The notes beneath the pieces were generated by a model. That model made no database searches and was not told the origin of the DNA. It saw only the letters and a list, made by a program, of their open reading frames with translations. A stretch of DNA of 64,000 nucleotides, from NCBI GenBank assembly GCA_963825545.1, contig CAWGTR010000006.1, positions 223,475-287,474 on the forward strand, read 5' to 3'. Source of the stretch: an uncultured Chloroflexia bacterium. Its GTDB lineage: Bacteria; Chloroflexota; Limnocylindria; Limnocylindrales; CSP1-4. Shown here piece after piece: positions 2,232 to 48,673 of the stretch (within the stretch, counting starts at the first letter, position 1; every line of letters starts with the position of its first letter). The position numbers were made by a program, and so were the translations under genes.

Positions 2232-2233
2232 GG

Positions 2234-3659: not shown

Positions 3660-3779
3660 TGAGCGGCGTGGACCGCCCGGTCCCGTATGTCGTCCCGTGC
3701 CCGCACGGTTCCACATTCGCCGCGTCATGGAAACGCCGCCCAGCCGCCACAGCAAGCGGGGCGTGTCCGCGAGGTTGGA

Positions 3780-4136
3780 TTGACCGCCATCTGGTACGTC
3801 GTCGGGTTCGCCTTCGCCGGCGTCTCGTTCGTCCTGCTGACGATCGGCGCGGCCTGGCTGATCTCGCATCGGAACCGCGGGGACGAGCACAAGGGCCTCC
3901 CCTACGAGTCGGGGATCGACACCTTCGGCGACACCCACGGGCGGTTCGGGCTGTCGTTCTACATCTACGCCTTGCTGTTCGTGGCGTTCGACATCGAGGT
4001 GGTCTTCATCTACCTCTGGGCGATCGTCTTCCGGGATCTCCTCATCGGCGGCTTCGTGAGCATGCTCGTGTTCGTGGCGGTCCTGCTGCTCGGGCTGGCC
4101 TACGCCTGGCGGAAGGGCGTCCTCACGTGGCGCTGA
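3780..4136 (+). CDS. nuoA: NADH-quinone oxidoreductase subunit A
   Basis: Three TM segments plus YESGI...FDIEVVFIYLWA motifs. TTG 3780 is preceded by GAGG. The longer ORF-track start at 3687 adds a non-conserved leader. Confidence 0.85.
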   Translation: MTAIWYVVGFAFAGVSFVLLTIGAAWLISHRNRGDEHKGLPYESGIDTFGDTHGRFGLSFYIYALLFVAFDIEVVFIYLWAIVFRDLLIGGFVSMLVFVAVLLLGLAYAWRKGVLTWR

Positions 4137-4858
4137 AGGGCAACCCCCCGGCGGCGGACCTTCCCGCGCCGGCAGCGCCCGACGCAGCGACGAACGCGGT
4201 CGTGGTCGCCGGCGGGCGCGACCTGATCGTGCCGATCGTGGTCCCGAACACGCTCTGGGAATCGCCCACCACGGCGGCGTACGGCGGCCAGCCCGTCGGC
4301 GACACCCACCTGCGCGAGTTCGGGGCGACCGAGCTGGGGCGCCACGACGACGCCCGCTGGGGCGCCCTCGAGGTGATCCCGACGAAGGCGGACATCGTCC
4401 TCGACCTGATCCGGGCCAACAGCCTCTGGCCGCTGCTGTCGGGGCTGGCCTGCTGCGCGATCGAGATGATGTCGGCGGCGACCTCGAAGAACGACATGGA
4501 CCGCTGGGGCATGTTCCCGTTCCGGGCCAGCCCGCGCCAGGCCGACGTGCTGATCGTCGCCGGCACGCTGACGACGAAGATGGCCGGTCCGCTCATCCGC
4601 CTGTGGGAGCAGATGCCCGAGCCGAAGTGGTGTGTCGCGATGGGCGACTGCACCTGCTCGGGCGGCCGCTACAAGCGCAGCTACTCGACGATCCAGGGGA
4701 TCGACCGGGTCCTCCCGGTCGACGTCTACGTGCCCGGCTGCCCGCCCCGCCCGGAAGGGCTGATCTACGGGATGATGCGGCTCCAGCAGCTCGTCCTGGA
4801 GCGGCGCGGCCACTGGCCGGAGCGAGCGATCGGCCCGACGGTCCCGGACGGGGTCTGA
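4127..4858 (+). CDS. nuoB: NADH-quinone oxidoreductase subunit B (N2 cluster subunit) with an N-terminal extension
   Basis: SLWPLLSGLACCAIEMM, ASPRQADVLIVAGT, GDCTCSGG and VPGCPPRPE. GTG 4127 overlaps the nuoA stop. The start is uncertain because several in-frame GTGs lie downstream. Confidence 0.85.
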   Translation: MALKGNPPAADLPAPAAPDAATNAVVVAGGRDLIVPIVVPNTLWESPTTAAYGGQPVGDTHLREFGATELGRHDDARWGALEVIPTKADIVLDLIRANSLWPLLSGLACCAIEMMSAATSKNDMDRWGMFPFRASPRQADVLIVAGTLTTKMAGPLIRLWEQMPEPKWCVAMGDCTCSGGRYKRSYSTIQGIDRVLPVDVYVPGCPPRPEGLIYGMMRLQQLVLERRGHWPERAIGPTVPDGV

Positions 4859-4863
4859 GCGCG

Positions 4864-5416
4864 ATGGATCGAGCCCTCAAGCGCCGCCTCGAGGCCCGCT
4901 TCGGAGAGCGGCTGCTCGGACCCGTCCGGCAGCGCCACGACGAGACCGAGATCCGGGTCGCGCCGGGCGACCTGCCCGAGGTGATGCGCGCCCTCCACGA
5001 CGAGCCCGACCTGCGCTTCGAGTCGCTGATGGACCTGTGCGGCGTCGACACCGGGACCGCGATGCAGACGGTCTACCACCTGTGGAGCGCGCACCACCTC
5101 GGACTGGCTCCGGGTGATCGCCGACGGCCTGTCCCGCGACGAGCCTCGGGTCCCGTCGGTCACCTTCCTGTGGAAGGGCGCCGAGTGGCAGGAGCGCGAG
5201 GCGTACGACATGTTCGGGATCGCGTTCGAGGGGAACCGCGACCTGCGCCGGATCTATATGCCGCCGGACTACACGAGCTTCCCGCTGCGCAAGGACTTCT
5301 ACCTGCCCGATGACGCCGCCCGCTCGCCCGGCGGCGGTGTCCGCCAGATGGAGCAGACCCACGCCCCGACGAACGCCACGGCCGAGGCGGCCGTGCGCCG
5401 CGCCAAGGTGAGCTGA
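4864..5416 (+). CDS. nuoC: NADH-quinone oxidoreductase subunit C, interrupted by a +1 frame change near 5095
   Basis: The N-terminal part ([21 protein letters not shown]...[10 protein letters not shown]) is in the frame of ATG 4864. The conserved C-terminal part ([66 protein letters not shown]) is in the next frame, ending at 5416. Confidence 0.8.
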
Positions 5417-5426
5417 GGTCGATCGG

Positions 5427-6644
5427 ATGACCGTCGTTCGCCATCCGTCCGCCGACGACCCGCGGGTCATGCTCGACGAGGAGGTCGGGGTCTTCGAGCC
5501 CGTCCCGCCGTATCCCCCGCGGACCGAGCGTGAGGCCGAGTTCTACTCGCTCGGCGCGGGCGAGATGTTCATCAACATGGGGCCCCAGCACCCATCGACC
5601 CACGGCGTCCTGCGGGTCGTCCTCAAGATCGAGGGCGAGCGGGTCGTGGACCTCGACCCGGTCCTCGGCTACCTCCACCGCGGGGTCGAGAAGCTGTGCG
5701 AGAACGCCGACTACCACCACACGATCGCCTACACCGACCCGCTCGAGTACGTCAGCGCGCTGTTCAACGAATGGGCGCCGGTGATGGCCTTCGAGAAGCT
5801 GCTCGACGTCGAGGTGCCCCGCCGGGCCGAATACATCCGGGTCCTGTCCGGGGAGCTCAACCGGGTCGCCAGCCACGCCCTGTTCATGGGCTGGATGGCG
5901 CTCGACCTGGGCGGCCTCACCCCGATCCTGTGGAGCTTCATCGAGCGCGACGACATCGTCGACATGCTCGCCTCGCTGACCGGCCAGCGGATGCTCTTCA
6001 ACTACTTCCGGATCGGCGGCGTCAACGGCGACCTGAACCACGAGTTCATGAGCCGGCTCGGGACGTGGATGAGCAAGGCGACCGAGCAGATCGAGGCGAA
6101 CATCACGCTGCTCAACGAGAACGAGATCTTCGTCCGGCGGATGCGCGGCCTGGGAATCCTCGACCGTGAGACGGCCTTCCGGATGTGCATGACCGGCCCG
6201 AACATCCGCGCCTCGGGCGTGCCGCTCGACATGCGCCGCTCGCACCCGTACAGCGTTTACCCGGAGCTCGAGTTCGACATCCCGACCCGCCAGGAGGGCG
6301 ACTGCCTGGCGCGCTACCTCCTCCGCCTCGAGGAGATCAAGCAGAGCCTCCGGATCATCGACCAGTGCCTGAACCAGATGCCCGACGGGCCGATCATGGC
6401 CAAGCTGCCGCGGCTCATGCGACCCCGACCCGGGCGGGCCTACGCGGCCGTCGAGGGTCCGCGCGGCCAGTACGCGACCTATGCGATCAGTGACGGGACG
6501 GACCAGCCGTACCGGATGCGGATCCACGACCCGAGCTTCGTCCACCTCCAGGCCGTCGGGCTGCTGACGCCCGGCAACCTGATCGCCGACACGATGGCGA
6601 TCATGGCCTCGCTCGATCCGATCATGGGCGGCGTCGACAAGTAG
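5427..6644 (+). CDS. nuoD: NADH-quinone oxidoreductase subunit D
   Basis: NMGPQHPSTHGVLR, LGYLHRGVEKL and the C-terminal SLDPIMGGVDK. 405 aa. Confidence 0.95.
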   Translation: MTVVRHPSADDPRVMLDEEVGVFEPVPPYPPRTEREAEFYSLGAGEMFINMGPQHPSTHGVLRVVLKIEGERVVDLDPVLGYLHRGVEKLCENADYHHTIAYTDPLEYVSALFNEWAPVMAFEKLLDVEVPRRAEYIRVLSGELNRVASHALFMGWMALDLGGLTPILWSFIERDDIVDMLASLTGQRMLFNYFRIGGVNGDLNHEFMSRLGTWMSKATEQIEANITLLNENEIFVRRMRGLGILDRETAFRMCMTGPNIRASGVPLDMRRSHPYSVYPELEFDIPTRQEGDCLARYLLRLEEIKQSLRIIDQCLNQMPDGPIMAKLPRLMRPRPGRAYAAVEGPRGQYATYAISDGTDQPYRMRIHDPSFVHLQAVGLLTPGNLIADTMAIMASLDPIMGGVDK

Positions 6645-7991
6645 ATGACGATGCTCAGCCGCTCGTTCGGCCGCCTGACCCTGCCGGGCAAGATCATCTT
6701 CACGGTCGTCCCCCTCGTCCTCATCGTCGGCGGGGTGGCCACGGCGGCCGCGATCATCGCCGCGCCGCTCGTCATCGACTTCGTCGGGGCGAACCTGCCG
6801 CTCTTCCGGTTCGTGCTGGCGGCGACGGTCGTGCTGCTGATGACCGTCCCGACGGCGTTCCTGATCATCTACATGGAGATGAAGGTCATCGCCCTGATGA
6901 ACCTTCGCTACGGGCCGGACCGGGTGGGCCCGTTCGGCTCGCTCCTGTCGGTCGTGCACGGGCTCAAGGTCCTGATGAAGGAGGACTTCACCCCGACCGG
7001 TGCCGACTCGGTGGTCTTCACCTGGGCGCCGGTGGTCGTCTACATGGCCAGCGTGATGACCCTGCTGGTGCTGCCGTTCGCCCCGGGCCTGTTCGGGCAG
7101 GACCTCAACATCGGGCTGCTGTACTTCTTCGCGATGGGCGGGCTGGGCGTCGTCGGGCTGCTCATGGCCGGCTGGTCGAGCTTCAACAAGTACTCGCTGC
7201 TCGGCGGGCTGCGCTCGGCGGCGCAGGTCGTCAGCTACGAGATTCCGCTGACCCTGTCGGTCGTCGGGATCATCCTCCTTGCCGGGACCCTGAGCCTCAA
7301 CAAGATCACGCTCGACCAGTCCGGCAGCCTGTTCGACTGGTTCGTGTTCAAGCAGCCGCTGGCGTTCCTCATCTTCTTCATCGCCGCTACGGCCGAGGCC
7401 AACCGGACGCCGTTCGACCTGACCGAGGCCGACTCGGAGATCGTGGCCGGGTTCGCCACCGAGTACTCGGGGATGCGCTTCGGGTTCTTCTTCTTCGCCG
7501 AGTACGTGAACGTGTTCATCATCTCGGGGCTCACCGTCGCGCTCTTCTTCGGCGGCTGGAACGCCCCGTTCGACTGGCCCTGGCCGATCACGCCGCACCC
7601 GGATCCGGGCGGCATGGGGGTCGGCCTGCTCGTCGCCATCGGGCTCGTGCCGCCGATCCTGATCCTCGTCCTCGGGCTGCCGTTCTATCTCGTCAACAGC
7701 CGGACGAAGCTGTGGCAGGCCCTGGTGATCGGGTTCGTCCTGTTCAACGTCCTCGCGGTCGCCGCGCTCATCGGGCTTGCCTTCCTCAGCTTCGACTGGG
7801 TCGTCGGCCTGTTCTGGTTCCTGATGAAGACGTACGCCTTCGTGTTCATGTTCGTCTGGATGCGCGGCACGCTGCCGCGGGTCCGGATCGACCAGCTCAT
7901 GGGCTTCGCCTGGAAGTGGCTGCTGCCCGCCTCGCTGCTCAACCTGTTCGTGACCGCCCTGGCGATCGTGCTCGTCGAGGGCGTTCGATGA
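6645..7991 (+). CDS. nuoH: NADH-quinone oxidoreductase subunit H, enlarged (448 aa; extra N-terminal and internal TM segments)
   Basis: EMKVIALMNLRYGPDRVGPFG, AAQVVSYEIPL, AEANRTPFDLTEADSEIVAGFATEYSG and RGTLPRVRIDQLM. Confidence 0.9.
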   Translation: MTMLSRSFGRLTLPGKIIFTVVPLVLIVGGVATAAAIIAAPLVIDFVGANLPLFRFVLAATVVLLMTVPTAFLIIYMEMKVIALMNLRYGPDRVGPFGSLLSVVHGLKVLMKEDFTPTGADSVVFTWAPVVVYMASVMTLLVLPFAPGLFGQDLNIGLLYFFAMGGLGVVGLLMAGWSSFNKYSLLGGLRSAAQVVSYEIPLTLSVVGIILLAGTLSLNKITLDQSGSLFDWFVFKQPLAFLIFFIAATAEANRTPFDLTEADSEIVAGFATEYSGMRFGFFFFAEYVNVFIISGLTVALFFGGWNAPFDWPWPITPHPDPGGMGVGLLVAIGLVPPILILVLGLPFYLVNSRTKLWQALVIGFVLFNVLAVAALIGLAFLSFDWVVGLFWFLMKTYAFVFMFVWMRGTLPRVRIDQLMGFAWKWLLPASLLNLFVTALAIVLVEGVR

Positions 7992-8001
7992 GCGCCGGGC
8001 G

Positions 8002-8664
8002 ATGACGTTCGTCCCGGGCCTTGGCCTCGTCAAGGGGATGGCGCTGACCCTGCGCCGCTTCTTCGAGCCGAAGGTGACGAACCTGTACCCGGAGGTCCCC
8101 GCCCAGATCCCGCCCAAGTTCCGCGGCCGGCTGCAGCTCCTGTACGACGAGTGGGGCACGCTCAAGTGCGAGACCTGCTTCCAGTGCGCCCAGGCCTGCC
8201 CGATCGAGTGCATCGACATGGGCGGTACCGACACCAAGGGCCGTTACGCCGTCCACTGGGGGGCGCCCGAGACGTACGGCGAACGGCGCGAGGAGTCGGC
8301 CCTCCGGCGGTCGGGCCGGACCGTGCCCGACCCCGCTTACGAGCACTTCCACGGGATCGATCTGGCGGCCGTGGATGCCGTTCTCGACGAGGTCGACCAC
8401 GATCCGCGCGAGATGCTCCGGATCCTGGCCGCGATCCAGGACGCGTACGGCTACGTACCCGTGGCCGCGCTCAAGCGGGTCAGCGAGGCGACCGGCGCGT
8501 GGTACGCGATGCTGTATGGCACGGCGACCTACTACGACCACCTCGCGGTCGGGGCACGGGAGACGGCGCCGAGCGCCGACGACGCCTACGTCGGAGCGCT
8601 CGAGGGGGCCCTCCACGGTGGCATCGACGACGGGGCGGCGAGCCGGGACGCGGGCGCCCGATGA
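8002..8664 (+). CDS. nuoI: NuoI-like ferredoxin half fused to a NuoE N-terminal helical domain (I::E' chimera)
   Basis: The N-terminal half carries NLYPEVPAQIPPKFRGR and one CETCFQCAQACP motif, as in NuoI. The C-terminal half carries MLRILAAIQDAYGYVPVAALKRVSEATGAWYAMLYGTATYYDHL, as in the NuoE four-helix domain. I see only 5 Cys in total, no second CxxCxxCxxxCP, and no thioredoxin-like 2Fe-2S part. Confidence 0.75.
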   Translation: MTFVPGLGLVKGMALTLRRFFEPKVTNLYPEVPAQIPPKFRGRLQLLYDEWGTLKCETCFQCAQACPIECIDMGGTDTKGRYAVHWGAPETYGERREESALRRSGRTVPDPAYEHFHGIDLAAVDAVLDEVDHDPREMLRILAAIQDAYGYVPVAALKRVSEATGAWYAMLYGTATYYDHLAVGARETAPSADDAYVGALEGALHGGIDDGAASRDAGAR

Positions 8665-10004
8665 CCGGCCTCCTGAAGACTCCGACCGGCTGGCCGAAGG
8701 TCCTCATCGAGTCGCCCCAGGCCGTCGACCCGACCGACCTCGATCGAGCCGTCCGCGATGGCGCCTTCGAGGCGCTCCGGACCGCGGTCCGGGCGATGAC
8801 CCCGAGCCAGGTCATCGGGGCGGTGGTCGGCTCCGGCCTGCGCGGTCGCGGCGGCAGCGGCTTCCCGACCGGGGCGAAGTGGCGGGTCGCGGCGAGCGCC
8901 CCCGGACCCACCCGCTACGTCGTCGCCAACGGCTACGGCGCCGACCCGGCGGTCCAGACCGACCGGACGCTCATGGAGCTGGCCCCGTATGCCGTGGTCG
9001 AGGGGGTCGCCCTGGCGGCCTATGCGATCGGGGCCGGCGAGGCGATCATTGCCGTCCGGGCCGATGCCGCCGAGGCGATCCGCCGGCTTGACGCGGCGAT
9101 CGGCGCCGCCGAGGAGGCCGGCTTCGCGGGGCCCGACGTCCTGGAGTCCGGCTGGGACCTGTCGATCCAGGTCCGCCCCGTCCAGGGTGCCTACATGCTC
9201 GGCGAGGAGACCGTCCTGCTCAAGGCGCTCGAGGGCAAGCGGGGCCAGCCCGAGCAGCGGCCGCCGCACCCGGCGGAGCGCGGGCTGTTCGGCCGCCCGA
9301 CGGTCGTCGACAACGTCCAGACCCTGGCGAGCGTGCCCTGGATCGTCCGCAACGGACCCGAGGCATACGCCGCGATCGGCTCGACGGCGAGCCCAGGGAC
9401 GATCCTCGTCCAGCTCCGCGCGCCGGCCGGCGGTGGGATCGCCGAGGTGCCGCTCGGGACCCCGCTCCGGGAGCTCATCGCGCTCGCCGGCCCGCGGGCC
9501 GGCCGATCGGACGGCGGCCGGCCGGTCAAGGCGGTCCTCGTCGGCGGACCCGCGGGTGGGTTCCTGCCGGCGGACCTGCTCGACACGCCGTTCGACTTCG
9601 AGTCGCTCCGCGACGTCGGGGCGCACGTCGGATCCGGCTCCATCGTCGTCGCCGACGACCGGGCCTGCGTCGTCGACCTGGCCCGGCTGCTCAGCCGCTT
9701 CTGCGCCGATCAGGCCTGTGGCAAGTCGATCCCCTGCCGGATCGGCACCCGTCGCCTGTCCGAGATCGCCGACCGGATCGCGGTCGGCACGCCGCGCCCG
9801 ACCGATGCCGGGCTGGCCGCCGACCTGGCCGCCGACATCCAGGGTTCCGGCCTGTGCGACCACGAGCGGCTGGCGACGCTGCCGATGACCAGCGCGATGC
9901 GATACTTCCGTGCCGAGCTCGACGACCATCTCCTCCGCAGCACCTGCCCCGCCGGCGTCTGCCACCCGATCAAGGTGGCCGTCGGGGCCGACCGAGGCGC
10001 TTGA
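8661..10004 (+). CDS. nuoF: divergent NuoF-like flavoprotein subunit (F')
   Basis: GLRGRGGSGFPTGAKW and GAYMLGEETVLLKALEG are present. ATG 8661 overlaps the upstream stop (ATGA). The dinucleotide-site segment reads ANGYGADPA rather than CNADE-type, and the N3 region reads FCADQACGKSIPC...GLC. Confidence 0.8.
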   Translation: MTGLLKTPTGWPKVLIESPQAVDPTDLDRAVRDGAFEALRTAVRAMTPSQVIGAVVGSGLRGRGGSGFPTGAKWRVAASAPGPTRYVVANGYGADPAVQTDRTLMELAPYAVVEGVALAAYAIGAGEAIIAVRADAAEAIRRLDAAIGAAEEAGFAGPDVLESGWDLSIQVRPVQGAYMLGEETVLLKALEGKRGQPEQRPPHPAERGLFGRPTVVDNVQTLASVPWIVRNGPEAYAAIGSTASPGTILVQLRAPAGGGIAEVPLGTPLRELIALAGPRAGRSDGGRPVKAVLVGGPAGGFLPADLLDTPFDFESLRDVGAHVGSGSIVVADDRACVVDLARLLSRFCADQACGKSIPCRIGTRRLSEIADRIAVGTPRPTDAGLAADLAADIQGSGLCDHERLATLPMTSAMRYFRAELDDHLLRSTCPAGVCHPIKVAVGADRGA

Positions 10005-12640
10005 TGACCGACCTGATCGTCCGACCCGAAGGCGCCCCGCCCGCCGAGCCGGGCGTCGCCGAGACCCTCGCGGAGCGACTGCTCGACGTGTCGGCGCCGC
10101 AGCGCCCGATGAGCGCCCCGGTGATCCGGATCGAGGTCGACGGGCGGGTCGTCGAGGGTCGCGACGGCCAGACGATCCTCGAGGTCTGCCGCGACAACGG
10201 GATCGAGGTCCCGACGCTGTGCTACGAGCCGAAGCTGCCCGGCTTCGGCGCCTGCCGGATGTGCGTCGTCGAGGTCGAGGGCGAAGAGCACCCGCCGATC
10301 AGCTGCTCGCGCGCGGCAGAGGCCGGCATGAAGGTCCAGACCCAGACCGACGAGGTGCGCCGCCTGCGGGCCACGAACCTCGAGCTGATCTTCAGCGACC
10401 ACAACGCCTACTGCCTGCCGCCCTGCCAGAACAAGTGCCCGAGCCACATCGACATTCCCGGCTTCCTCAAGCAGAACGCCGAGGGCGAGTGGCGCGAGTC
10501 GACCCGGATCTTCAAGCGGACGATCCCCTTCCCGAGCGTGCTCGGACGGGTCTGCCCGGCGCCGTGCGAGGAGCACTGCCGGCGCGACGAGGTCGATGAG
10601 GCGATCGCCATCCGTGACAGCCACCGCTACGCCGGGGACCAGGTCATCAAGGCGATGCTCGACGACGGGATCGACCCGCCGCTGCCATTCGAGCCCCAGC
10701 CGAAGACGGGTCGCCGGGCGGCCGTCATCGGGTCCGGCCCGGCCGGGATGAGCGCCGCCTACTACCTCCTCCTGGCCGGTCACGACGTGACCGTCTTCGA
10801 GCGCGACCCGGCGCCCGGCGGGATGCTCCGCTACGGGATCCCGCAGTACCGGCTCCCGAAGATCGAGGTCCTCGAGGCGGAGTACGAGTCGGTCAGCCGG
10901 CTGGGCGGGAAGATCGTATGCAACCAGGCCCTCGGGCGCGACTTCACCCTCGACGACCTCCAGGGCCAGGGCTACGACGCCGTCCTGGTGGCGATCGGCT
11001 GCTACGACACGAACAAGCTGGGCATCCCGAACGAGGACGCCGACGGCGTCATCGACGGCCTCGAATACCTCCAGACGGCCACCCTCGGCCTGCCCTACCC
11101 CGGGCACCGCGGGAAGCGCGTCGTCGTGATCGGCGGGGGGTTCACCTCGATGGACTGCTCGCGGACGTCGATCCGCCAGGGTGCCGCCGAGGTGACCCTC
11201 GTCTATCGCCGGGACATGAAGGACATGCCCGCCTCGAACGAGGTCCACGAGGCGATCGAGGAAGGCGTCCAGGCGATCTTCCAGGCCGCCCCGACGCGGG
11301 TCATCGTCGACGAGAAGACCGGCCGGGTGAGCGGCGTCGAGTTCATCCGCAACAAGCTCGGCGAGCCCGACGCGTCGGGCCGGCGGCGGCCCGAGCCGTC
11401 GCCCGGCACGGAGTTCACAATCGATTGCGACCGGGTCCTCCTGGCGATCGGCCAGGGCCCCGACCTGACCTGGATCGGGCCGGGCTCGGAGGGTCCCGAG
11501 GCGACGAAGCAGCGCCGGCTGAAGGCCGACCCGGTGACGTTCGAGACCGGACGGCCCGGCGTGTTCGGGACCGGCGACGTGCGGGTCGGCGCGGCCACCG
11601 TCGTCCAGGCGATCGCCGAGGGCCGCCGGGCGTCGTACGCCGCGGACGCCTACCTGCGTGGGATGGACCTCGGGACGATCCGGGCCCGCCAGACGCTCGC
11701 CGAGCCGCAGCCCGAGTTCCTGTCGATCGTGCCATTTACGAGCGAGGTCAAGGAACCCCGCTACCGGCTCAAGGCGATGGACGCCGAGGTCCGCAACAAG
11801 AGCTACCTCGAGTACGAGATCCCGTACACCCCCGCGGAGGCGGTCGCGGAGTCGACCCGCTGCCTGCAGTGCACCTGCGAGGCGATTGGGTTCTGCGACC
11901 TGCGCCGGCTCGGAATCGAGTACGGGACGACACTGCGCACGCTCGAGCCGCAGTTCCACCAGGGCGCGGGCTACCGGAGCGTCACCGAGAACCGCTTCAC
12001 CGGGATCAACCACGACTACGTGCGCGACGACAGCCACGCCTTCATCCTCCGCGAGCCGTCGCGCTGCATCGACTGCGGCCGCTGCGCCCAGGTCTGCTCC
12101 GAGGTCGTCGGGGCCGCCTGCTACGACTTCATGCGGATCGGCTTCGACACGCTCGTGACGACCCCGCTCGACATGAGCCTCAACGACACCCCGTGCGTGT
12201 CCTGTGGGCGCTGCGCCGAGACCTGCCCGACCGGGGCGCTGATGCCGAAGCCACGGGTGCTCGAGAAGTACGAGGTCGACGAGAGCCGCTGCATCCTGTG
12301 CGGGATCTGCGTCGATGCCTGTCCGTACGACGCCCTCCGCGACGGCGCCGACTTCGAGCTCAGCCACGTCGATCGCTCCGAGCCGATGGTCGACCTGATC
12401 GCCCTGGCGGCCATCGACCGGGAGACGGAGGCGACCTACATCCGCCGCGAGCGCGACTGGGTCGCCCGCGCCACCGCCGCCGGGCGTCCACCGGATCCGT
12501 CGCGCCTCCTGCCGGTCCTGCCGCCATCCGTCACCGGGGGCGGGGCGGGCCTGGCCGCCGCGCGCCACGGAGAGCGAACGGGCGGCAACGGCGCCTCCGG
12601 CAACGGCGCGGCCGGCGCCGGCCACGCCCATCACGAGTAG
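10004..12640 (+). CDS. NuoG-type Fe-S protein with an inserted GltD-like FAD/NAD(P)H oxidoreductase module and no molybdopterin-like domain (G'::GltD)
   Basis: Domain order: a 2Fe-2S motif (CYEPKLPGFGACRMCVVEVEG...ISC); GltD-type Fe-S sites (YCLPPCQNKCPSHIDIPGFLK, GRVCPAPCEEHC); GxGxxG sites (AVIGSGPAGMSAAYYL, VVVIGGGFTSMD); then CIDCGRCAQVC, CVSCGRCAETCPTGAL and CILCGICVDACPYDAL. The start overlaps the nuoF' stop (TGATG). Confidence 0.8.
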   Translation: MTDLIVRPEGAPPAEPGVAETLAERLLDVSAPQRPMSAPVIRIEVDGRVVEGRDGQTILEVCRDNGIEVPTLCYEPKLPGFGACRMCVVEVEGEEHPPISCSRAAEAGMKVQTQTDEVRRLRATNLELIFSDHNAYCLPPCQNKCPSHIDIPGFLKQNAEGEWRESTRIFKRTIPFPSVLGRVCPAPCEEHCRRDEVDEAIAIRDSHRYAGDQVIKAMLDDGIDPPLPFEPQPKTGRRAAVIGSGPAGMSAAYYLLLAGHDVTVFERDPAPGGMLRYGIPQYRLPKIEVLEAEYESVSRLGGKIVCNQALGRDFTLDDLQGQGYDAVLVAIGCYDTNKLGIPNEDADGVIDGLEYLQTATLGLPYPGHRGKRVVVIGGGFTSMDCSRTSIRQGAAEVTLVYRRDMKDMPASNEVHEAIEEGVQAIFQAAPTRVIVDEKTGRVSGVEFIRNKLGEPDASGRRRPEPSPGTEFTIDCDRVLLAIGQGPDLTWIGPGSEGPEATKQRRLKADPVTFETGRPGVFGTGDVRVGAATVVQAIAEGRRASYAADAYLRGMDLGTIRARQTLAEPQPEFLSIVPFTSEVKEPRYRLKAMDAEVRNKSYLEYEIPYTPAEAVAESTRCLQCTCEAIGFCDLRRLGIEYGTTLRTLEPQFHQGAGYRSVTENRFTGINHDYVRDDSHAFILREPSRCIDCGRCAQVCSEVVGAACYDFMRIGFDTLVTTPLDMSLNDTPCVSCGRCAETCPTGALMPKPRVLEKYEVDESRCILCGICVDACPYDALRDGADFELSHVDRSEPMVDLIALAAIDRETEATYIRRERDWVARATAAGRPPDPSRLLPVLPPSVTGGGAGLAAARHGERTGGNGASGNGAAGAGHAHHE

Positions 12641-12652
12641 GGAGGAGCGCGG

Positions 12653-13204
12653 GTGCCGATCCCGGACACGATCCCGGTCATCGGGGCGACTTGGAACGAC
12701 GCCCTGTTCGTGATCTTCGCCGGGATCCTCCTCGGATCCGGGCTGCTCGTCGTCACCCTCCGCGACATCATCCGCTGCGGGCTGGCGATGATCGTCTGCT
12801 TCGGCGCCCTGGCCGGCATCTACGTCATCCTCGGCGCACCGCTCATCGCCGGGGCCCAGGTGCTCGTCTACATCGGCGCGATCAGCGTGCTCATCCTGTT
12901 CGCCATCATGCTCACCCAGACGAAGGCCGCCCCGGCCCGCCTCGTGTTCCAGACCCAGGCGGTCCCGGCGGCGATCGCCGCGCTCGTCCTGGCAGTGATC
13001 CTCGCGCTCGTGGTCGTGTCGACGGACTGGGGTGCCGCGGCGGCGGTCGCGCGGACGGCGACGGACGACATGGCCCGCCTCCTGTTCCACGACTATGTCC
13101 TGCCGTTCGAGGTCGTGAGCGTCCTGCTCCTCGCGGCGGTCGTCGGCGGGGTCTACCTTGCCAAGCGCGAGGTCGACGCGACCGAGGAGCGCGGCCCGCG
13201 ATGA
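12653..13204 (+). CDS. nuoJ: NADH-quinone oxidoreductase subunit J
   Basis: GTG follows GGAGGAG. TM-rich, with AGAQVLVYIGAISVLILFAIML and a C-terminal GGVYLAKRE. Confidence 0.9.
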   Translation: MPIPDTIPVIGATWNDALFVIFAGILLGSGLLVVTLRDIIRCGLAMIVCFGALAGIYVILGAPLIAGAQVLVYIGAISVLILFAIMLTQTKAAPARLVFQTQAVPAAIAALVLAVILALVVVSTDWGAAAAVARTATDDMARLLFHDYVLPFEVVSVLLLAAVVGGVYLAKREVDATEERGPR

Positions 13205-13512
13205 CGAACTCCCTCGATGCCTACCTGATCCTGTCCGGCCTGCTGTTCTGCCTCGGGACCTTCGGCTTCCTTGCCCGCCGCAACGCGATCAGCATGCTCA
13301 TGTCGATCGAGCTGATGCTCAACGCCGTCAACCTCTCGATCGTCGCCTTCGGGGCGTTCGTGCCCAAGCTCCAGGGCCAGGGCTCGATCATCGCCCTGGT
13401 GGTGATGGCCGTGGCGGCGGGTGAGGCGACGGTCGGGCTGGCCATCGTCATGGCGATCTTCCGCAACCGGCGGACGCCGCTCGTCGACGAGTACGACTCG
13501 ATGCGGCAGTAA
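13201..13512 (+). CDS. nuoK: NADH-quinone oxidoreductase subunit K
   Basis: ATGA overlap with nuoJ. LMSIELMLNAVNLSIVAF...AAGEATVGLAIVMAIFRNRRT. Confidence 0.95.
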   Translation: MTNSLDAYLILSGLLFCLGTFGFLARRNAISMLMSIELMLNAVNLSIVAFGAFVPKLQGQGSIIALVVMAVAAGEATVGLAIVMAIFRNRRTPLVDEYDSMRQ

Positions 13513-13516
13513 GCCG

Positions 13517-15487
13517 ATGCCGTACGACGCGCTGATCGTCGCCATCCCGGCGCTGCCGATCGCCGGCTTCGCCTTCACCGCCCTGTTCGGCCGGCGCATC
13601 CAGGCGCGGCTCGGCCGGAACGCGGCCAGCGCCGTCCCGCTCGCCGTGGTGATCCTGAGCTGGCTGGCGGCGATGATCGTCGTGGTCCCCGCGCTCGGGC
13701 ATGCCGAGCCATTCGGCGAGCGCGGTCTCGACTTCACGCTGTACACCTGGATCCCGGCCGGGAACTTCGTCGTCGACGTCGGGTTCCACGTCGACGCCCT
13801 GACGGCCTGCCTCCTGATCGTGGTGACGACGATCGGGATGCTCGTCCACGTCTACTCGGTCGGGTACATGGCCCACGACCCCGGGACGTGGCGGTTCTTC
13901 GCCTACCTCAACCTGTTCATGTTCTCGATGCTGCTGCTCGTGCTGGCCGACAGCTTCCTCGTGATCTTCGTGGCCTGGGAGCTGGTCGGGCTGTCGAGCT
14001 ACCTGCTGATCGGGTTCTGGTACCGCAAGCCGACCGCGGCGCTCGCCGCGAAGAAGGCGTTCATCGTCAACCGTGTCGGGGACGTCGGCTTCGCGCTCGG
14101 GATCATGCTCATCTTCGTGAGCCTCGGGACGCTCAACGTCCAGGCGGTGCTCGGGTCGATCGGGACGCTCGACCAGTTCACGATCGTGGCCATCGCGCTG
14201 CTCGTGTTCTGTGGCGCAGTCGGCAAGAGCGCCCAGTTCCCGCTCCACGTCTGGCTGCCCGACGCGATGGAGGGCCCGACCCCCGTCTCGGCGCTGATCC
14301 ATGCCGCGACGATGGTCAACGCCGGGGTCTACCTGATCGCGCGGGTCAACCCGATCTTCGGCCACGCCCAGGGCGCGATGGTCGTGGTGGCGGCGATCGG
14401 GATCTTCACCGCGCTGCTCGCCGCGTCGATCGCGTTCACCCAGACCGACATCAAGCGCGTCCTCGCCTACTCGACGTTGTCCCAGCTCGGCTACATGTTC
14501 GCCGCGCTCGGCGTCGGCGCCTGGATCGGCGCCATCTTCCACCTCATGGCCCACGGTTTCTTCAAGGGCCTCCTGTTCCTCGATTCGGGGTCGGTGATCC
14601 ACGCCGTCCACGAGGAGCAGGACATGCGCCGGATGGGCGGGCTGTGGCGCAAGATCCCGATCACGTACTGGACGATGCTCATCGGCGCGCTGGCGATCTC
14701 GGGGATCCCGCCGCTGGCCGGCTTCTTCAGCAAGGACGAGATCCTCGGCGAGGCGTTCAAGAACGGCTTCCTCGTCGTCTGGGCGATCGGCTTCGCGGTC
14801 GCCGGGATGACCGCCTTCTACATGTTCCGGCTGATGGGGATGACCTTCTGGGGCCCGAGCCACGTCGACCCGAAGGTGGAGCCCACGATCCATGAGTCGC
14901 CCCGCTCGATGACCGTGCCGCTCATCCTGCTGGCGATCGCGTCGATCTTCCTCGGGCTCGTGATCGGCGTGCCGCTCGGTGCCGGCCTGATCAACACCTG
15001 GCTCGAGCCGGTGTTCGCCGAGACGATCGCGCTGACTGGCGGCGAGGCGGCTCCGTTCGGCCCGCTTGACGTAGCCCTGATCCTGGCCAGCGTGTCGATC
15101 GCGACGATCGGGATCATCGTCGCCTGGCGCTTCTTCGGGGTCGAGCTCGGCGCCCTCCGCCGCGCTCCGCGGCCGAAGGAGGTCACGGCGATCGCCACGG
15201 CCAGCCCCCTGACCCGGTTCCTCTACCGCGCTTCGCTCAACAAGTGGTGGTTCGACGACCTCAACGACCTGTTGTTCATCCGGATCGGCGGGCGGATCGC
15301 GGCCGCGGCCTGGTGGTTCGACCGGACGATCATCGACGGCACGGTCAACGAGATCGGCACAATCGCTGTCGGCGTCGGCCGGGAGCTGCGCCGGGTCCAG
15401 ACCGGTCGGGTCCAGAACTACGCCCTCGGGATCGCCATCGGGCTGATCGTGATGGCCGGCTCGTACCTCGTGATCGTGGGGCGCTGA
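13517..15487 (+). CDS. nuoL: NADH-quinone oxidoreductase subunit L
   Basis: WELVGLSSYLLIGFW, KSAQFPLHVWLPDAMEGPTPVSALIHAATMV and YSTLSQLGYMF. 656 aa. Confidence 0.95.
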   Translation: MPYDALIVAIPALPIAGFAFTALFGRRIQARLGRNAASAVPLAVVILSWLAAMIVVVPALGHAEPFGERGLDFTLYTWIPAGNFVVDVGFHVDALTACLLIVVTTIGMLVHVYSVGYMAHDPGTWRFFAYLNLFMFSMLLLVLADSFLVIFVAWELVGLSSYLLIGFWYRKPTAALAAKKAFIVNRVGDVGFALGIMLIFVSLGTLNVQAVLGSIGTLDQFTIVAIALLVFCGAVGKSAQFPLHVWLPDAMEGPTPVSALIHAATMVNAGVYLIARVNPIFGHAQGAMVVVAAIGIFTALLAASIAFTQTDIKRVLAYSTLSQLGYMFAALGVGAWIGAIFHLMAHGFFKGLLFLDSGSVIHAVHEEQDMRRMGGLWRKIPITYWTMLIGALAISGIPPLAGFFSKDEILGEAFKNGFLVVWAIGFAVAGMTAFYMFRLMGMTFWGPSHVDPKVEPTIHESPRSMTVPLILLAIASIFLGLVIGVPLGAGLINTWLEPVFAETIALTGGEAAPFGPLDVALILASVSIATIGIIVAWRFFGVELGALRRAPRPKEVTAIATASPLTRFLYRASLNKWWFDDLNDLLFIRIGGRIAAAAWWFDRTIIDGTVNEIGTIAVGVGRELRRVQTGRVQNYALGIAIGLIVMAGSYLVIVGR

Positions 15488-15491
15488 GCCG

Positions 15492-17039
15492 ATGGGCGAC
15501 CTGACCATCCCGCTGCTCAGCGCGATCACCTTCACGCCGCTCGTCGGGGCGCTGGTCATCGCGGTCGTCCCGCGCACCGCCGAACGGGCGATCCGCTGGA
15601 TCGCGCTGGCGACGTCGCTGATCGCGTTCGGGCTGTCGCTCGTGCTGCTGGCGGCGTTCGACCCGCTCAAGCCGGGCTTCTCGTTCGTCGAGCAGGTGGA
15701 CTGGATCCCCGTCTTCGGGATCCAGTACAAGGTCGGGGTCGACGGCCTGTCGGCCGTGCTCGTGGTGCTCACGACGACGCTGTCGTGGATCAGCATCCTC
15801 GCCTCGTTCGGGCCGATCCACGAGCGGATCAAGGAGTACATGATCTCGTTCCTGATCCTCGAGGTCGGCCTGATCGGCGTGTTCGTGGCGCTCGACCTGT
15901 TCCTGTTCTACGTGTTCTGGGAGGTCGTCCTCGTCCCGATGTACCTGATCATCGGGATCTGGGGCGGCTCAAACCGGGTGTACGCGACGATCAAGTTCGT
16001 GCTGTACACGCTCGTCGGGTCGCTGCTGATGCTGGTCGCGATCCTGGCCACGGCCTTCACCTACCAGTCGGCGACCGGCAGCTGGGACCACGCCTTCGAC
16101 TTCGAGTACCTGCGCAGCTTCGCCGCGACAGTCGGGTTCGCGAATGGGCTCCAGGTGTTCGCGTTCCTGGCCTTCTTCCTCGCCTTCGCGATCAAGGTCC
16201 CCATGTTCCCGTTCCACACCTGGCTGCCGGATGCCCACGTCGAGGCCCCGACGGCCGGGTCGGTGATCCTCGCGGCGATCATGCTCAAGCTCGGCGCCTA
16301 CGGGTTCATCCGCTTCGCGGTGCCGCTGTTCCCCGATGCGGCCCACACGTTCGCGGTACCGATCATCGTGCTCAGCCTCATCGCGATCATCTATGGCGCG
16401 GTCGTCGCCCTCGTCCAGCCCGACCTCAAGAAGCTCATCGCCTACTCGTCGGTCAGCCACATGGGCTTCGTGACCCTCGGGATCTTCGTGTTCCAGCAGC
16501 AGGGCCTGCAGGGGGCGATCCTGCAGATGGTCAACCACGGGCTGATCACCGGGGCCCTGTTCCTCCTGGTCGGGGTGATCTACGAGCGGACCCACGACCG
16601 GACGATCGCCAGGATGGGCGGGCTGTCGGGCCGAACTCCGGTGTACGCCGCCGCATTCGGCTTCTTTGTCTTCGCCAGCGCCGGGCTGCCCGGGCTGTCC
16701 GGGTTCGTCGGCGAGTTCCTGGTGCTGGTCGGGACCTTCGCGGCCAGCCCGTACGCCGCGGCCATCGCCACGTTCTGCATGATCCTGGCGGCCGGCTACC
16801 TGCTCTGGATGTTCCAGCGCGTCTTCACGGGCGAGCTGTCCGACTTCCTGGCCGGCCTCGGCCAGCACCTGACCGACATCCGTCCGATCGAGATCGCGAC
16901 GCTCGCCCCGCTCGGGGCGATGATCGTCGTGTTCGGGCTCTTCCCCGGCCTCCTCCTGACGATCATCCAGGGCACCGTGGCGACCTTCACCGCGAGCGTC
17001 GGCGCCCACGACGTCGCCGTCCACCTGATGGTCCGGTAG
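15492..17039 (+). CDS. nuoM: NADH-quinone oxidoreductase subunit M
   Basis: FYVFWEVVLVPMYLIIGIWGG, FPFHTWLPDAHVEAPTAGSVILA and YSSVSHMGFV. Confidence 0.95.
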   Translation: MGDLTIPLLSAITFTPLVGALVIAVVPRTAERAIRWIALATSLIAFGLSLVLLAAFDPLKPGFSFVEQVDWIPVFGIQYKVGVDGLSAVLVVLTTTLSWISILASFGPIHERIKEYMISFLILEVGLIGVFVALDLFLFYVFWEVVLVPMYLIIGIWGGSNRVYATIKFVLYTLVGSLLMLVAILATAFTYQSATGSWDHAFDFEYLRSFAATVGFANGLQVFAFLAFFLAFAIKVPMFPFHTWLPDAHVEAPTAGSVILAAIMLKLGAYGFIRFAVPLFPDAAHTFAVPIIVLSLIAIIYGAVVALVQPDLKKLIAYSSVSHMGFVTLGIFVFQQQGLQGAILQMVNHGLITGALFLLVGVIYERTHDRTIARMGGLSGRTPVYAAAFGFFVFASAGLPGLSGFVGEFLVLVGTFAASPYAAAIATFCMILAAGYLLWMFQRVFTGELSDFLAGLGQHLTDIRPIEIATLAPLGAMIVVFGLFPGLLLTIIQGTVATFTASVGAHDVAVHLMVR

Positions 17040-17046
17040 GCGGGCG

Positions 17047-18519
17047 ATGAGCTCGCAGGAACTCCTCACGATCGCCCCGCTCGTGACGGCCATCCTGGTA
17101 GCCGCGGCGGTCATCGTCGTCGACCTCGTACGGCCCGGCGCGCGCACCGAGCCACTCGTCGTCGCGCTGGTCGGGCTGGCGATCGTCGCCGCGGTCACGG
17201 TCGTGTCCGGGGCGAACCCGGGCGACGCCTTCGGCGGCGCCTACCGGGTGGACGCGCTGACGACGCTGCTCGACCTGCTGTTCGTCGCGATCATCGCCTT
17301 CACGCTGCTCTTCGCGCCCGACTACCTGGCGGCCCGGAACCTGCCGCTGGCCGAGTTCGCGGCCGTGCTCGTGTTCGCGATGACCGGGGCGATGCTCATC
17401 TCCGCGTCGATGGACCTGCTCGTGCTCTTCCTCGGGCTCGAGTTGATGGTCCTGCCAGGCTACCTGCTGGCCGGGTTCGCCAAGCGCGACTCGCTGTCGA
17501 CGGAAGGCGCGATCAAGTACTTCCTCCTCGGCTCGTTCAGCTCGGCGATCTTCCTGTTCGGGCTGTCGTTCGTCTGGGGCCTCACCGGGTCGACCCGGAT
17601 CGCCGCGGTCGCGTCGAGCCTCGGCGCGGTGGTCGCGGGCACCGCGCCGCTGTCCCCGGGGCTGGCAATGGGGCTCGCGTTCCTGACGACCGGCGTGGCG
17701 TTCAAGATCGCCGCGGTGCCGTTCCACTACTGGACGCCGGACGCCTACCAGGGCTCGCCCACGCCGGTCACCGGCTACCTGTCGGTCGGCCCCAAGATCG
17801 GCGCCTTCGCGCTGATCCTGCGCCTGTTCGTGGGCGCCCTCGGTCCGCTCCACGCCGACTGGCTGGTGGTGATCGTGATCCTGTCGACGATCACGATGAC
17901 GCTCGGCAACTTCGTGGCCATCACCCAGGACAACGTCAAGCGGATGCTCGCCTACTCGTCGATCGCGCACACGGGCTACATGCTCGTCGGGCTGGCCGCC
18001 TGGGCGAGCCCGAACTCGCGCATCGAGGGCATCGAGGGCCTGCTCTTCTACGCGGTCGCCTACAGCTTCATGAACCTCGGCGCGTTCGCCGTCGTGGCCG
18101 CGCTCCAGCGCCGGCGCGGGGTCACCAGCAGCATCGACACGTTCGCCGGCCTCGGCGCCCGCGAGCCCGCGCTGGCGATCCTGATGACCCTGTTCCTGCT
18201 GTCCCTGACCGGGATCCCGCCGACGGCCGGCTTCTTCGCCAAGGCGTTTGTGATCCTGGCCGGCGTCGAAGCCGGTGGGGCGGCGGCCGTGCTGGCGGTC
18301 ATCGCAGTGCTCAACGCCGCGGTCGCCGCGTTCTACTACCTGCGCGTCGTCGTCTACATGTTCATGCGCGACGCCAAGGGCGAGCCGGTGCCCCTCGAGA
18401 AGAGCGGCATCCTGCGGGTGGGCCTCGCCGGCACGGCGTTCCTGACGATCGTCCTCGGGCTGTTCCCCGGAGCGCTCGTCCAGGTCGTCGAGAACGCCGC
18501 GCGCGCCCTCGTCTCCTAG
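17047..18519 (+). CDS. nuoN: NADH-quinone oxidoreductase subunit N
   Basis: LGLELMVLPGYLLAGF, VPFHYWTPDAYQGSPTPVTGYLS and AYSSIAHTGYML. Confidence 0.95.
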   Translation: MSSQELLTIAPLVTAILVAAAVIVVDLVRPGARTEPLVVALVGLAIVAAVTVVSGANPGDAFGGAYRVDALTTLLDLLFVAIIAFTLLFAPDYLAARNLPLAEFAAVLVFAMTGAMLISASMDLLVLFLGLELMVLPGYLLAGFAKRDSLSTEGAIKYFLLGSFSSAIFLFGLSFVWGLTGSTRIAAVASSLGAVVAGTAPLSPGLAMGLAFLTTGVAFKIAAVPFHYWTPDAYQGSPTPVTGYLSVGPKIGAFALILRLFVGALGPLHADWLVVIVILSTITMTLGNFVAITQDNVKRMLAYSSIAHTGYMLVGLAAWASPNSRIEGIEGLLFYAVAYSFMNLGAFAVVAALQRRRGVTSSIDTFAGLGAREPALAILMTLFLLSLTGIPPTAGFFAKAFVILAGVEAGGAAAVLAVIAVLNAAVAAFYYLRVVVYMFMRDAKGEPVPLEKSGILRVGLAGTAFLTIVLGLFPGALVQVVENAARALVS

Positions 18520-47448: not shown

Positions 47449-47820
47449 CGATCGGGTCTGACCTGTTGGCTGTCGGGGTGGCGATGGGTAATGGTCGGCC
47501 AGGGGCGCGGGCTCGGGGGAACCGTGGCGTGGGCTCGTTCGGCGCGCTCTGCAGGCCGGCGGCGGTCCGCTCCAGGGGCTCCTCGGAGGGTCTTCCAGAG
47601 GCTGCCACCGACCTTCCCGGCGCCGGGGGCCCGCGAAGGATAGCACCGGCCGGAGGAGGCTCGCAAGGCGTTCCGGCGCGATTCGCCAGATACTCCCCAG
47701 GGGTATCCGTGCGTGGCCGCCCCGACGGCCCCGACGGGTCCGACCGGGGTCGCCTCGCCGGTCGACGCCAGTCTCGCCGAAACGCGGCACGCAGGCCGGC
47801 GCCGGCGCATCCGACCTCGT

Positions 47821-47850
47821 TTGACACCCCCTTCGCGACCGCCCCATAAT
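47821..47850 (+). promoter_or_regulatory. sigma-70-like promoter upstream of rpmH: TTGACA, 18 nt spacer, CATAAT
   Basis: TTGACA at 47821-47826 and CATAAT at 47845-47850. Confidence 0.55.
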
Positions 47851-48470: not shown

Positions 48471-48673
48471 AGACGCTCGGGATCGGCTTGATCAAGCTCT
48501 ATCGGATCGTCTTCTTCTGGCTGCCCTCGAGCTGTCGCTTCGAGCCCACCTGCTCGCGCTACACCGAGCAGGCGATCGCGAAGTACGGCCTGTTCCGTGG
48601 GAGCTGGATGGGCGCCCGCCGGATCGCCCGGTGTCATCCATGGAACCCGGGCGGCTATGACCCGGTCCGCTAG
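48467..48673 (+). CDS. yidD: membrane protein insertion efficiency factor YidD
   Basis: GTGA overlap with rnp[35 protein letters not shown]...RIARCHPW. Confidence 0.9.

Follow-up and report, generated by a model that had tools for sequence, protein, structure and literature searches.

How does a protein with a GltD-like FAD/NAD(P)H module come to be encoded inside a nuo operon, between a nuoF-like gene and nuoJ? The question is raised by an 878-residue open reading frame (ORF) at positions 10004-12640 of a 64,000-nucleotide stretch of DNA (G+C ~71%) on contig CAWGTR010000006.1 from an uncultured Chloroflexia bacterium; this whole stretch is referred to here as the window. A preliminary description took the protein for a NuoG N-terminal Fe-S domain interrupted by a GltD module. 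We propose that it is instead part of an NADPH-oxidizing, NfnCBA-like trio built into complex I, in which NuoI is split over two fusion proteins and electrons are not bifurcated, and we give this reading as a whole a probability of about 60%. With regard to anatomy, we are highly confident of an NfnCBA-like cassette that lies inside nuoI of an operon of the 11-subunit type, with the halves of nuoI fused to the N-terminal domain of a NuoE/NfnC-like protein (E') and to the NfnA-like protein. With regard to function, the sequence gives slightly better than even odds to a non-bifurcating proton pump that would pass electrons from NADPH (or NADH) to quinone.

The divided NuoI and the NfnA-type subunit

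The last Cys motif of the 878-residue protein, CILCGICVDACP, had been listed as an extra one. Three kinds of alignment indicate that it belongs to NuoI, as the second CxxCxxCxxxCP motif of that subunit. First, positions 71-116 of the 121-position NuoI model TIGR01971 (NCBIfam) match residues 751-796 of the protein, and positions 1-65 match residues 12-77 of a 220-residue ORF at 8002..8664, which precedes the nuoF-like gene. These half-NuoI matches score 49.7 and 57.4 bits when taken separately, and between them (1-65 and 71-116 of 121) the NuoI profile is completely covered, on different polypeptides. Second, the N-terminal halves of solved NuoI/TYKY chains align to residues 9-81 of the upstream ORF, and their C-terminal halves align to residues 753-812 of the 878-residue protein, a match that extends far past the Cys motif (8qby_I residues 93-152, for instance, with E 2.5e-11). 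Third, residues 1-86 of the upstream ORF joined to residues 745-836 of the protein give one continuous NuoI match over positions 1-116 of 121 (98.5 bits, E 2e-28).

The N-terminal half, here called I' (8002..8250), carries the first CxxCxxCxxxCP motif, CETCFQCAQACP. The C-terminal half, I'' (residues 751-812, 12254..12439), runs as CILCGICVDACPYDAL...FEL and includes a Pfam Fer4 match at residues 756-779. The Cys motif of I' is invariant in 64 loci, and all eight NuoI Cys are invariant across both halves. A remnant of the A5 cluster of a molybdopterin-like domain was considered as another source of CILCGICVDACP, and was rejected on the type of motif, the NuoI profile and the structure alignments. 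The equivalent region of 9bov_A and 8oh5_C is a CxxCxxxC cluster of the molybdopterin-like domain, a different motif.

In ferredoxin folds with two [4Fe-4S] clusters, each cluster is held by three Cys of one motif and by a single Cys of the second motif. With the motifs on separate chains, N6a and N6b would each have to be ligated across both half-NuoI polypeptides. In E. coli, the residues around these clusters show that N6a adjoins the second motif, and N6b the first one (PMC8357420). Three of the four N6a ligands would therefore come from the half that is fused to the 878-residue protein, and N6a would be the entry cluster from the input arm.

The protein as a whole is encoded by an intact ORF on the + strand, as are all features of the operon described here, from the ATG at 10004 to the TAG stop at 12638-12640. 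Its translation contains, in addition to CILCGICVDACP, the motifs PPCQNKCPSHIDIPGFLK, GRVCPAPCEEHC, CIDCGRCAQVC and CVSCGRCAETCPTGAL. A [2Fe-2S] domain at residues 40-115 (10121..10348; Pfam Fer2_4, E 2.7e-20) is equivalent to A1/N1b, with the invariant ligands C73, C84, C87 and C101. It is followed by a GltD/NfnL-type domain for two [4Fe-4S] clusters, A6 and A7, at residues 137-216 (10412..10651; Fer4_20, E 2.5e-17). The FAD and NADPH binding domains occupy residues 239-553 (10718..11662), as judged from Pfam, motif conservation, AlphaFold2 (AF2) modelling and Foldseek, and include a Pyr_redox_2 match at residues 239-540 (E 9.6e-30). Of two Rossmann GxGxxG sites described earlier, the FAD site is indeed GSGPAG, but the NADPH site, GGGFTS...VYRR, does not follow the strict form. 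An invariant C-x2-C-x-C-x5-C cluster at residues 620-631 (11861..11896) aligns with the motif CLECGC...C of NfnA from Caldicellulosiruptor saccharolyticus (Csac) and corresponds to A3. A NuoG/Fdh-type ferredoxin domain with eight invariant Cys for A2/N4 and A4 lies at residues 681-746 (12044..12241; Fer4_Nqo3 and alignments). The tail beyond I'' (12440..12640, including the stop codon) is of low complexity and poorly conserved (0.63 in Limnocylindria, 0.38 in Thermoleophilia), with a low predicted local distance difference test score (pLDDT). No Pfam match to a molybdopterin domain was found in the protein, which ends at residue 878, so the reported absence of this domain stands, as does the reported order of 2Fe-2S domain, GltD-like module and 4Fe-4S motifs.

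All 26 Fe-S motif Cys of the protein (4 in A1, 6 in Fer4_20, 4 in A3, 8 in A2/A4 and 4 in the NuoI half) are invariant among cluster representatives of two clades, 119 from Limnocylindria and 120 from Thermoleophilia. The glycine motifs of the FAD and NADPH sites and the VYRR/LYRR sequence are kept in both clades, and the YRR motif is invariant in the same representatives. We take its Arg pair to be the typical 2'-phosphate binding element of the family. His207 (window positions 10622-10624) aligns opposite K170, the Lys ligand of A7 in 9bov_A, and this His is invariant in both complex I-embedded clades, including the Thermoleophilia lineage. The Lys ligand is important in the soluble enzymes, as the S. 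ovata enzyme mutated at this position is severely reduced in activity (PMC11829005, PMC12018979).

Over nearly its full length, the protein matches known A subunits. The best structural matches are Csac NfnA (9bov_A, E 5.4e-165, residues 40-795 on chain residues 3-722), Thermococcus sibiricus NfnA (9n5u_A, E 3.7e-144) and Sporomusa ovata StnC (8oh5_C, E 2e-143), which agrees with the likeness to soluble NAD(P)H-linked and bifurcating oxidoreductases suggested before. An AF2 model of the full protein, built with 82 homologs, is confident over residues 40-560 only, with pLDDT mostly >80 in the FAD/NADPH domains. Foldseek with this model returned the same three chains on top, and otherwise NfnA/StnC, NfnL and GltD-type proteins. 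The best NCBIfam model is PRK12814 (NF009454), matched over positions 4-631 of 657. The protein is not GltD itself, a stand-alone partner of GltB with ~450-480 residues: it scores 229.5 against a cut-off of 447.7 for TIGR01317 and 307.9 against 483 for TIGR01318, the module is only one part of a larger Fe-S protein, and no gltB neighbor was found among the window ORFs at the locus.

The domain order of NfnA/StnC (an N-terminal 2Fe-2S domain, an NfnL-like FAD/NADPH module and a NuoG/Fdh-like Fe-S part) is thus present. The Fdh/molybdopterin-like domain with A5 and the A7 Lys ligand are absent, and the score stays below the curated cut-off. The sequence evidence indicates an NfnA/StnC-type (BfuA-type) subunit whose molybdopterin-like C-terminal domain has been swapped for half of NuoI. 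The notion of a NuoG domain interrupted by a GltD module was therefore abandoned. The combination of 2Fe-2S, GltD and ferredoxin parts is already known and solved; what is new is the exchange of the Fdh-like domain for a half NuoI, and the position of the gene.

The operon, the partner genes and their relatives

The genes are arranged in the order nuoA-B-C-D-H-[I'::E']-[F']-[NfnA-like::I'']-J-K-L-M-N, so that nuoH precedes the E/F/G-like genes. The position between a nuoF-like gene (F', 8661..10004) and nuoJ (12653..13204; Pfam Oxidored_q3), inside a nuo operon, is as first described. Within the operon, neither the ORFs nor synteny disclosed a free-standing or intact nuoI or nuoG.

Upstream of the cassette, nuoA (3687..4136) was recognized from its translation and from the syntenic gene with PF00507 in a related locus, L001; its true start may be further downstream. 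The start of nuoB (~4130..4858; translation, PF01058 in L001) is approximate, and its product has the N2 ligands CC...C...C in GLACCAIEMM, WCVAMGDC and PGCPP. A single inserted nucleotide near 5091 divides nuoC (4858..5416) between two frames; at this point the window reads GAGCGCGCACC and a close relative, L002, reads GAGCGC-CACC. nuoC is intact in L002 and L001, and in view of the intact L002 copy the frameshift is probably an assembly indel of a long-read metagenome-assembled genome (MAG). nuoD (5427..6644; Complex1_49kDa, 2.8e-86) encodes the 49-kDa subunit with the quinone-site His and Tyr motifs HPSTHG and GYLHRG, and nuoH (6645..7991; NADHdh, 2.4e-104) encodes 448 residues. Downstream of nuoJ follow nuoK (13201..13512; translation, PF00420 in L001), nuoL (~13517-15487), nuoM (15492-17039) and nuoN (17047-18519), the last three assigned as ORFs by synteny with L001 and with L082, a Thermoleophilia locus. 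The core subunits NuoA, B, C, D, H, J, K, L, M and N are thus all encoded, with N2 ligands and quinone-site residues in place and with nuoC frameshifted in the window only. The order ABCDH...JKLMN, with no EFG between D and H, makes an 11-subunit complex the likely backbone of this operon.

The coding regions are tightly packed. The upstream ORF and F' overlap in ATGA at 8661, and the ATG of the NfnA-like gene overlaps the TGA of F' as TGATG at 10004; elsewhere there are gaps of 10-12 nt with Shine-Dalgarno-like sequences, such as GGAGGAG between the stop of the NfnA-like gene and nuoJ. A consensus scan gave no promoter-like sites, and no more terminator-like sites than expected from shuffled sequence. 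Because of these overlaps and short gaps, and the lack of any excess of promoter or terminator signals, we infer that the nuo genes and the trio form a single operon. The possibility raised earlier, that the gene is transcribed independently of the nuo genes, thus found no support.

The two partner proteins are also closest to Nfn subunits. Behind I', the 220-residue ORF encodes E' (8353..8544), the N-terminal helical domain of NuoE/NfnC. Residues 118-181 match the N-terminal domain of NfnC/StnA/NuoE (9bov_C residues 20-82; also 8oh5_A and 9n5u_C), and the Pfam model 2Fe-2S_thioredx (PF01257) is matched at positions 2-58 of 145 only, the thioredoxin-like 2Fe-2S domain being absent. No Cys occurs after residue 85 of this ORF, and E' is free of Cys in every Limnocylindria locus surveyed whose frame is intact; hence there is no C1 cluster. 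In the Csac structure, the N-terminal domain of NfnC anchors that subunit in the cleft between NfnA and NfnB (PMC11829005).

F' (447 residues; Complex1_51K and NADH_4Fe-4S) is closest to NfnB (9bov_B, 378 bits, E 6.7e-112), with respiratory NuoF at 273 bits or less. It aligns to chain residues 106-525 of 584, which is the NfnB core only: both extra domains of BfuB are absent in the alignment, and with them the sites for B2-B5 and Zn. The FMN loop GLRGRGGxGFPTG and the GEET motif are retained. Three motifs are altered throughout the clade (the window and loci L001-L081): NADEGDP has become NGYGADP, CGKCxxC reads CGK[T/S]IPC and, past the fourth Cys, CGLGQTAPNP is replaced by CDHERLATLP. This pattern suggests remodelled sites, with a non-standard N3/B1 ligand (possibly Asp or His) and a changed nucleotide pocket. 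Decay of F' was considered and rejected, because the altered motifs are kept throughout the clade and dN/dS is like that of the core subunits. With C1 and both extra BfuB domains (N-terminal thioredoxin-like, C-terminal ferredoxin) missing and B1 not of the four-Cys type, the window form lacks the bifurcating core of the Bfu enzymes.

Soil metagenomes contain very many close homologs of the NfnA-like protein (82-98% identity), and the named ones come from Chloroflexota, Candidatus Limnocylindrales/Limnocylindria. They are annotated as "FAD-dependent oxidoreductase" or "formate dehydrogenase major subunit", or with a pair of COGs left uninterpreted by the pipelines. The gene is therefore common in its clade under generic labels with no demonstrated function, which disposes of the earlier concern that it might be a routinely annotated complex I subunit. 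With one genome scanned for each GTDB species, relatives of the C-terminal region turned up in at least 490 genomes, and the best 80 loci are essentially all from Limnocylindria-type MAGs. L002 has 99% protein identity, and 94.8% DNA identity across 20.6 kb. The order D-H-I'E'-F'-G'I''-J...N, where G' is the NfnA-like part, is kept in all ~60 Limnocylindria loci with enough flanking sequence.

Among the top 150 representatives at 50% identity, only one further lineage has the NuoI-half fusion (P0148, 42% identity), and its relatives are Thermoleophilia (Actinomycetota) MAGs. Two such loci, L082 (7311-12475) and L083, show gene order and junctions identical to the window. The E part is complete in Thermoleophilia and keeps the C1 site, CxxxxC...CxxxC. 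The B subunit of L082 (636 residues) has an N-terminal thioredoxin-like 2Fe-2S domain, a C-terminal domain for two [4Fe-4S] clusters and a four-Cys B1, which amounts to a full Bfu core. The Thermoleophilia operon appears to be the same invention in a form that has been reduced less. Identities between the two phyla are 38-54% for all subunits (F 47%, G 45%, NuoD 44%, NuoL 51%); since the module and the core are similarly conserved, the comparison would fit a single insertion, followed by descent or by transfer of the whole operon.

dN/dS, computed against three relatives, was 0.06-0.12 for the NfnA-like protein, 0-0.26 for the NuoI halves, 0.14-0.27 for F', 0.12-0.28 for the rest of the I'E' ORF and 0.04-0.27 for the core subunits. 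All parts are under purifying selection, and none is decaying.

Several observations concern the same genes and their relatives. The NuoH of the window is longer than that of L082 (448 against 375 residues), by about 75 additional, apparently hydrophobic residues inside the region spanned by the 298-position Pfam model. Directly upstream of nuoA, at 2123-3451 (+), lies a gene for a Methyltransf_28 protein (PF02636), which is a neighbor in L001 as well. This is presumably the family of NDUFAF7/MidA, the arginine methyltransferase of complex I assembly, and the protein may act on NuoD of this complex. The I'E' frame runs into the F' gene, or gains Cys-containing sequence, in a few long-read MAG loci (L075, L053 and L009); these are probably indel errors, although a fused I'E'-F' variant is possible in L075. 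Six NfnA/Fdh-like relatives of ~810-850 residues (P0130, P0153, P0154, P0188, P0199 and P0212) all end in ...NN(I/V)DHCARL, and these are, by analogy with formate dehydrogenases, probably gene calls that stopped at an in-frame UGA for selenocysteine.

Elsewhere in the window, dnaN (44461-45579, -), dnaA (46087-47847, -) and yidC (48597-49910, +) mark a replication-origin neighborhood ~28 kb from the nuo operon. An ORF for a release factor (59202-59918, -; RF-1 and PCRF domains) starts at position 121 of the PCRF model, with the N-terminal part in another frame, which agrees with either an indel or the programmed +1 frameshift known from prfB. A 1814-residue ORF (29952-35396, -) has recognizable domains (PMT, PMT_4TMC) at residues 1093-1549 only.

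Proposed electron path and competing explanations

In Csac NfnABC, electrons follow the path FAD-A7-A6-A3-A2-A1-[B1-FMN-C1], and the branch A2-A4-A5 has been called a dead-end evolutionary remnant (PMC11829005). By homology, NADPH would reduce the FAD of the GltD-like module in the window enzyme, and electrons would pass through the His-ligated A7 to A6, A3 and A2. The NuoI half begins ~20 residues past the A4/A2 ferredoxin domain, at the position of the lost A5 domain. This location is the reason for proposing a route A2-A4-N6a, by which the branch that in soluble Nfn ends blindly at an A5/pterin-less domain would lead into N6a and N6b. From N6b, electrons would reach N2 in NuoB and then quinone, presumably menaquinone in these phyla, at the NuoD/NuoH site, with proton pumping by NuoL, NuoM and NuoN. 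A second entry, probably linked to NADH, would run from the FMN of F' through the modified B1 (B1') to A1 and A2.

The minimal bifurcation site is FMN-B1-C1 (PMC11829005). Because C1 and the domains on the ferredoxin side are absent, bifurcation is not expected in the window form, for which we expect plain NAD(P)H:quinone oxidoreduction. The Thermoleophilia form could bifurcate or confurcate. Schut et al. (PMC9304861) argue that full pumping by a complex I linked to menaquinone is favored if the donor has a lower potential than NADH, and NADPH in vivo would fit this argument.

Several points weigh against this reading. The NADPH specificity is deduced from conservation of the YRR motif and from homology, and the reassembly of NuoI from two chains is likewise inferred. 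The joined halves, at 98.5 bits, stay below the curated TIGR01971 cut-off of 113; AF2 gave them a pLDDT of 36 when run with no alignment, and gave <50 for residues 623-811 (the Fe-S and NuoI region) in the full-length model. The match to PRK12814 reaches 541 bits against a cut-off of 916, and the NuoG model TIGR01973 reaches 95.7 bits against 470, matching residues 43-141 only. F' has lost the second Cys of N3/B1 and the acidic pair of NADEGDP, so NADH entry through this subunit may be altered or inactive. It is also formally possible that the frameshifted nuoC is a pseudogene.

A first alternative keeps the same machine but lets it work mainly in reverse, with the proton motive force driving electrons from quinol (for which trace-gas hydrogenases, CO dehydrogenase or succinate are possible sources) to NADP+, and with NADPH used for biosynthesis. 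That complex I is reversible is generally known; in Nfn enzymes the same holds for the GltD/NfnL module (PMC11829005, PMC10482914), and the NADPH motif is strictly conserved. Against this, no feature of the window bears on direction, and the neighbors are housekeeping genes. Both classes are, moreover, what we take to be aerobic heterotrophs. We consider this alternative unlikely.

A bifurcating or confurcating enzyme of the Nuo-Bfu type, in which an FMN-B1-C1 flavobicluster couples NADPH (or NADH) to ferredoxin while quinone is reduced, is somewhat less likely still. It would suit the homology of the trio to NfnABC/StnABC, the complete BfuB and NuoE-type C1 site of the Thermoleophilia relatives and the precedent of Nuo-Bfu predicted for Geobacter and Planctomycetes (PMC9304861). 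However, the Cys-free E' leaves no C1 in the window or in the surveyed Limnocylindria loci with intact frames, F' lacks both extra domains with B2-B5 and Zn, and B1 is one Cys short. Both C1 and B1 belong to the minimal bifurcation site (PMC11829005).

A third explanation, that the protein is a novel NuoG with a GltD insertion in an otherwise ordinary complex I, and that its last Cys motif is an additional ferredoxin motif or a remnant of the molybdopterin domain, appears improbable. It could draw on the weak matches of the N-terminal 2Fe-2S and Nqo3-type domains to NuoG models (TIGR01973), and on the loose alignment of the region past CPTGA to the CxxCxxxC of the molybdopterin-like domain in 9bov_A and 8oh5_C. 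The full-length match is, however, to NfnA/StnC and not to NuoG; the last motif, CxxCxxCxxxCP followed by YDAL...FEL, corresponds to NuoI positions 71-116 and not to the A5 motif; and the operon has no intact nuoI, while the upstream ORF holds exactly the half that is missing.

An assembly artefact, a pseudogenized operon or a soluble Nfn-like enzyme that landed in nuoI and inactivated complex I might be suspected from the nuoC frameshift and from indel-type disruptions in several related long-read MAG loci, but is very improbable given the same arrangement in ~60 independent short- and long-read assemblies and in a second phylum, the purifying selection on every part including the NuoI halves (dN/dS 0-0.26), the invariant Cys ligands and the intact nuoC of L002.

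Comparison with known systems

How an 11-subunit, ferredoxin-type ancestor of complex I gained its NADH-oxidizing arm is a long-standing question about the origin of the N-module. The locus looks like a second, independent solution, in which the joins are still visible as gene fusions and a fuller stage (Thermoleophilia) can be compared with a reduced one (Limnocylindria). We tentatively suggest that two very abundant, largely uncultured soil classes respire with a complex I whose flavoprotein arm arose independently of NuoEFG, by insertion of a whole bifurcating transhydrogenase of the NfnCBA type into nuoI. Respiration would in that case draw on NADPH directly, with conservation of energy, N6a and N6b would be shared between two chains, and the two clades would represent successive stages, first with a full Bfu core and then stripped of it.

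Canonical complex I oxidizes NADPH poorly. If the proposal is correct, proton-pumping NADPH oxidation takes place in abundant soil bacteria, models of their redox balance and energy yield change, and the complex contains a two-cluster ferredoxin fold built from two chains, of which natural examples are rare. The locus is also a natural experiment on which parts of the Bfu core are removable and on non-Cys ligation, with Lys replaced by His at A7 and Cys by Ser/Thr at B1. Hundreds of species-level genomes carry the gene under a generic subunit label, and are presumably scored as lacking nuoI or nuoG. The literature searched, of which our coverage was incomplete, contained no description of a split NuoI or of an Nfn-type insertion, and an earlier description is possible; the nearest reports are those of Nuo-Bfu and of Mbx-like GltD proteins.

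With the canonical 14-subunit complex I of T. thermophilus and E. coli, the window operon shares NuoA, B, C, D, H and J-N, N2, the quinone motifs, an arm related to NuoEFG, and the motifs for N6a and N6b. It differs in that nuoH stands before the input module, NuoI is split, the NuoG molybdopterin-like domain and N1a are missing, and an FAD/NADPH site is added. The 11-subunit enzymes (cyanobacterial NDH-1, Nuo11) have the same backbone, ABCDHIJKLMN, with no EFG between D and H, and such complexes have been reported in Chloroflexi and Actinobacteria (Moparthi & Hagerhall 2011, PMC3144371). Unlike the window operon, they have an intact NuoI and no flavoprotein module; where their donor is known, it is ferredoxin.

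A GltD-type NAD(P)H flavoprotein together with a complex I-like membrane module also occurs in the Mbx-like operons of Thermotoga and proteobacteria (Degli Esposti 2015, PMC4758237). That work discusses the flavoprotein in connection with NuoI and describes it as a substitute for this subunit in an Mrp/Mbx-type complex, whereas the window keeps both halves of NuoI and a Nuo-type quinone reductase. Nitrospina NUO-2 (Lucker 2013) differs again from the arrangement in the window.

Nuo-Bfu, predicted in Geobacter, Deferribacteres, Planctomycetes and Nitrospirae (Schut et al. 2022, PMC9304861), is similar in being a complex I-type membrane enzyme with a Bfu-like input module instead of the canonical NuoEFG in the middle of the nuo cluster. 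Its BfuABC genes take the place that EFG normally have in a 14-gene operon, nuoI is intact and BfuA has no GltD/NADPH module; in the window, by contrast, the cassette lies inside nuoI, the NADPH module is present and features of the Bfu core have been lost. Since F' lacks the ferredoxin-type domain IPR017896, which was among the criteria by which that survey selected BfuB, the survey would probably not have caught it.

The closest counterparts of the trio are the soluble, electron-bifurcating NfnABC/StnABC transhydrogenases of the Bfu family (9BOV/9BP5, 9N5U, 8OH5), with 35-45% identity. The three genes follow the same C-B-A order, and the domains of the A subunit, the FMN loop of the B subunit and the N-terminal domain of the C subunit are shared. 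The soluble enzymes have their own Fdh/molybdopterin-like domain with A5, and a Lys ligand at A7; the window form has half of NuoI and a His in these places, lies within a nuo operon, and is without C1, without both extra BfuB domains and with one Cys fewer at B1.

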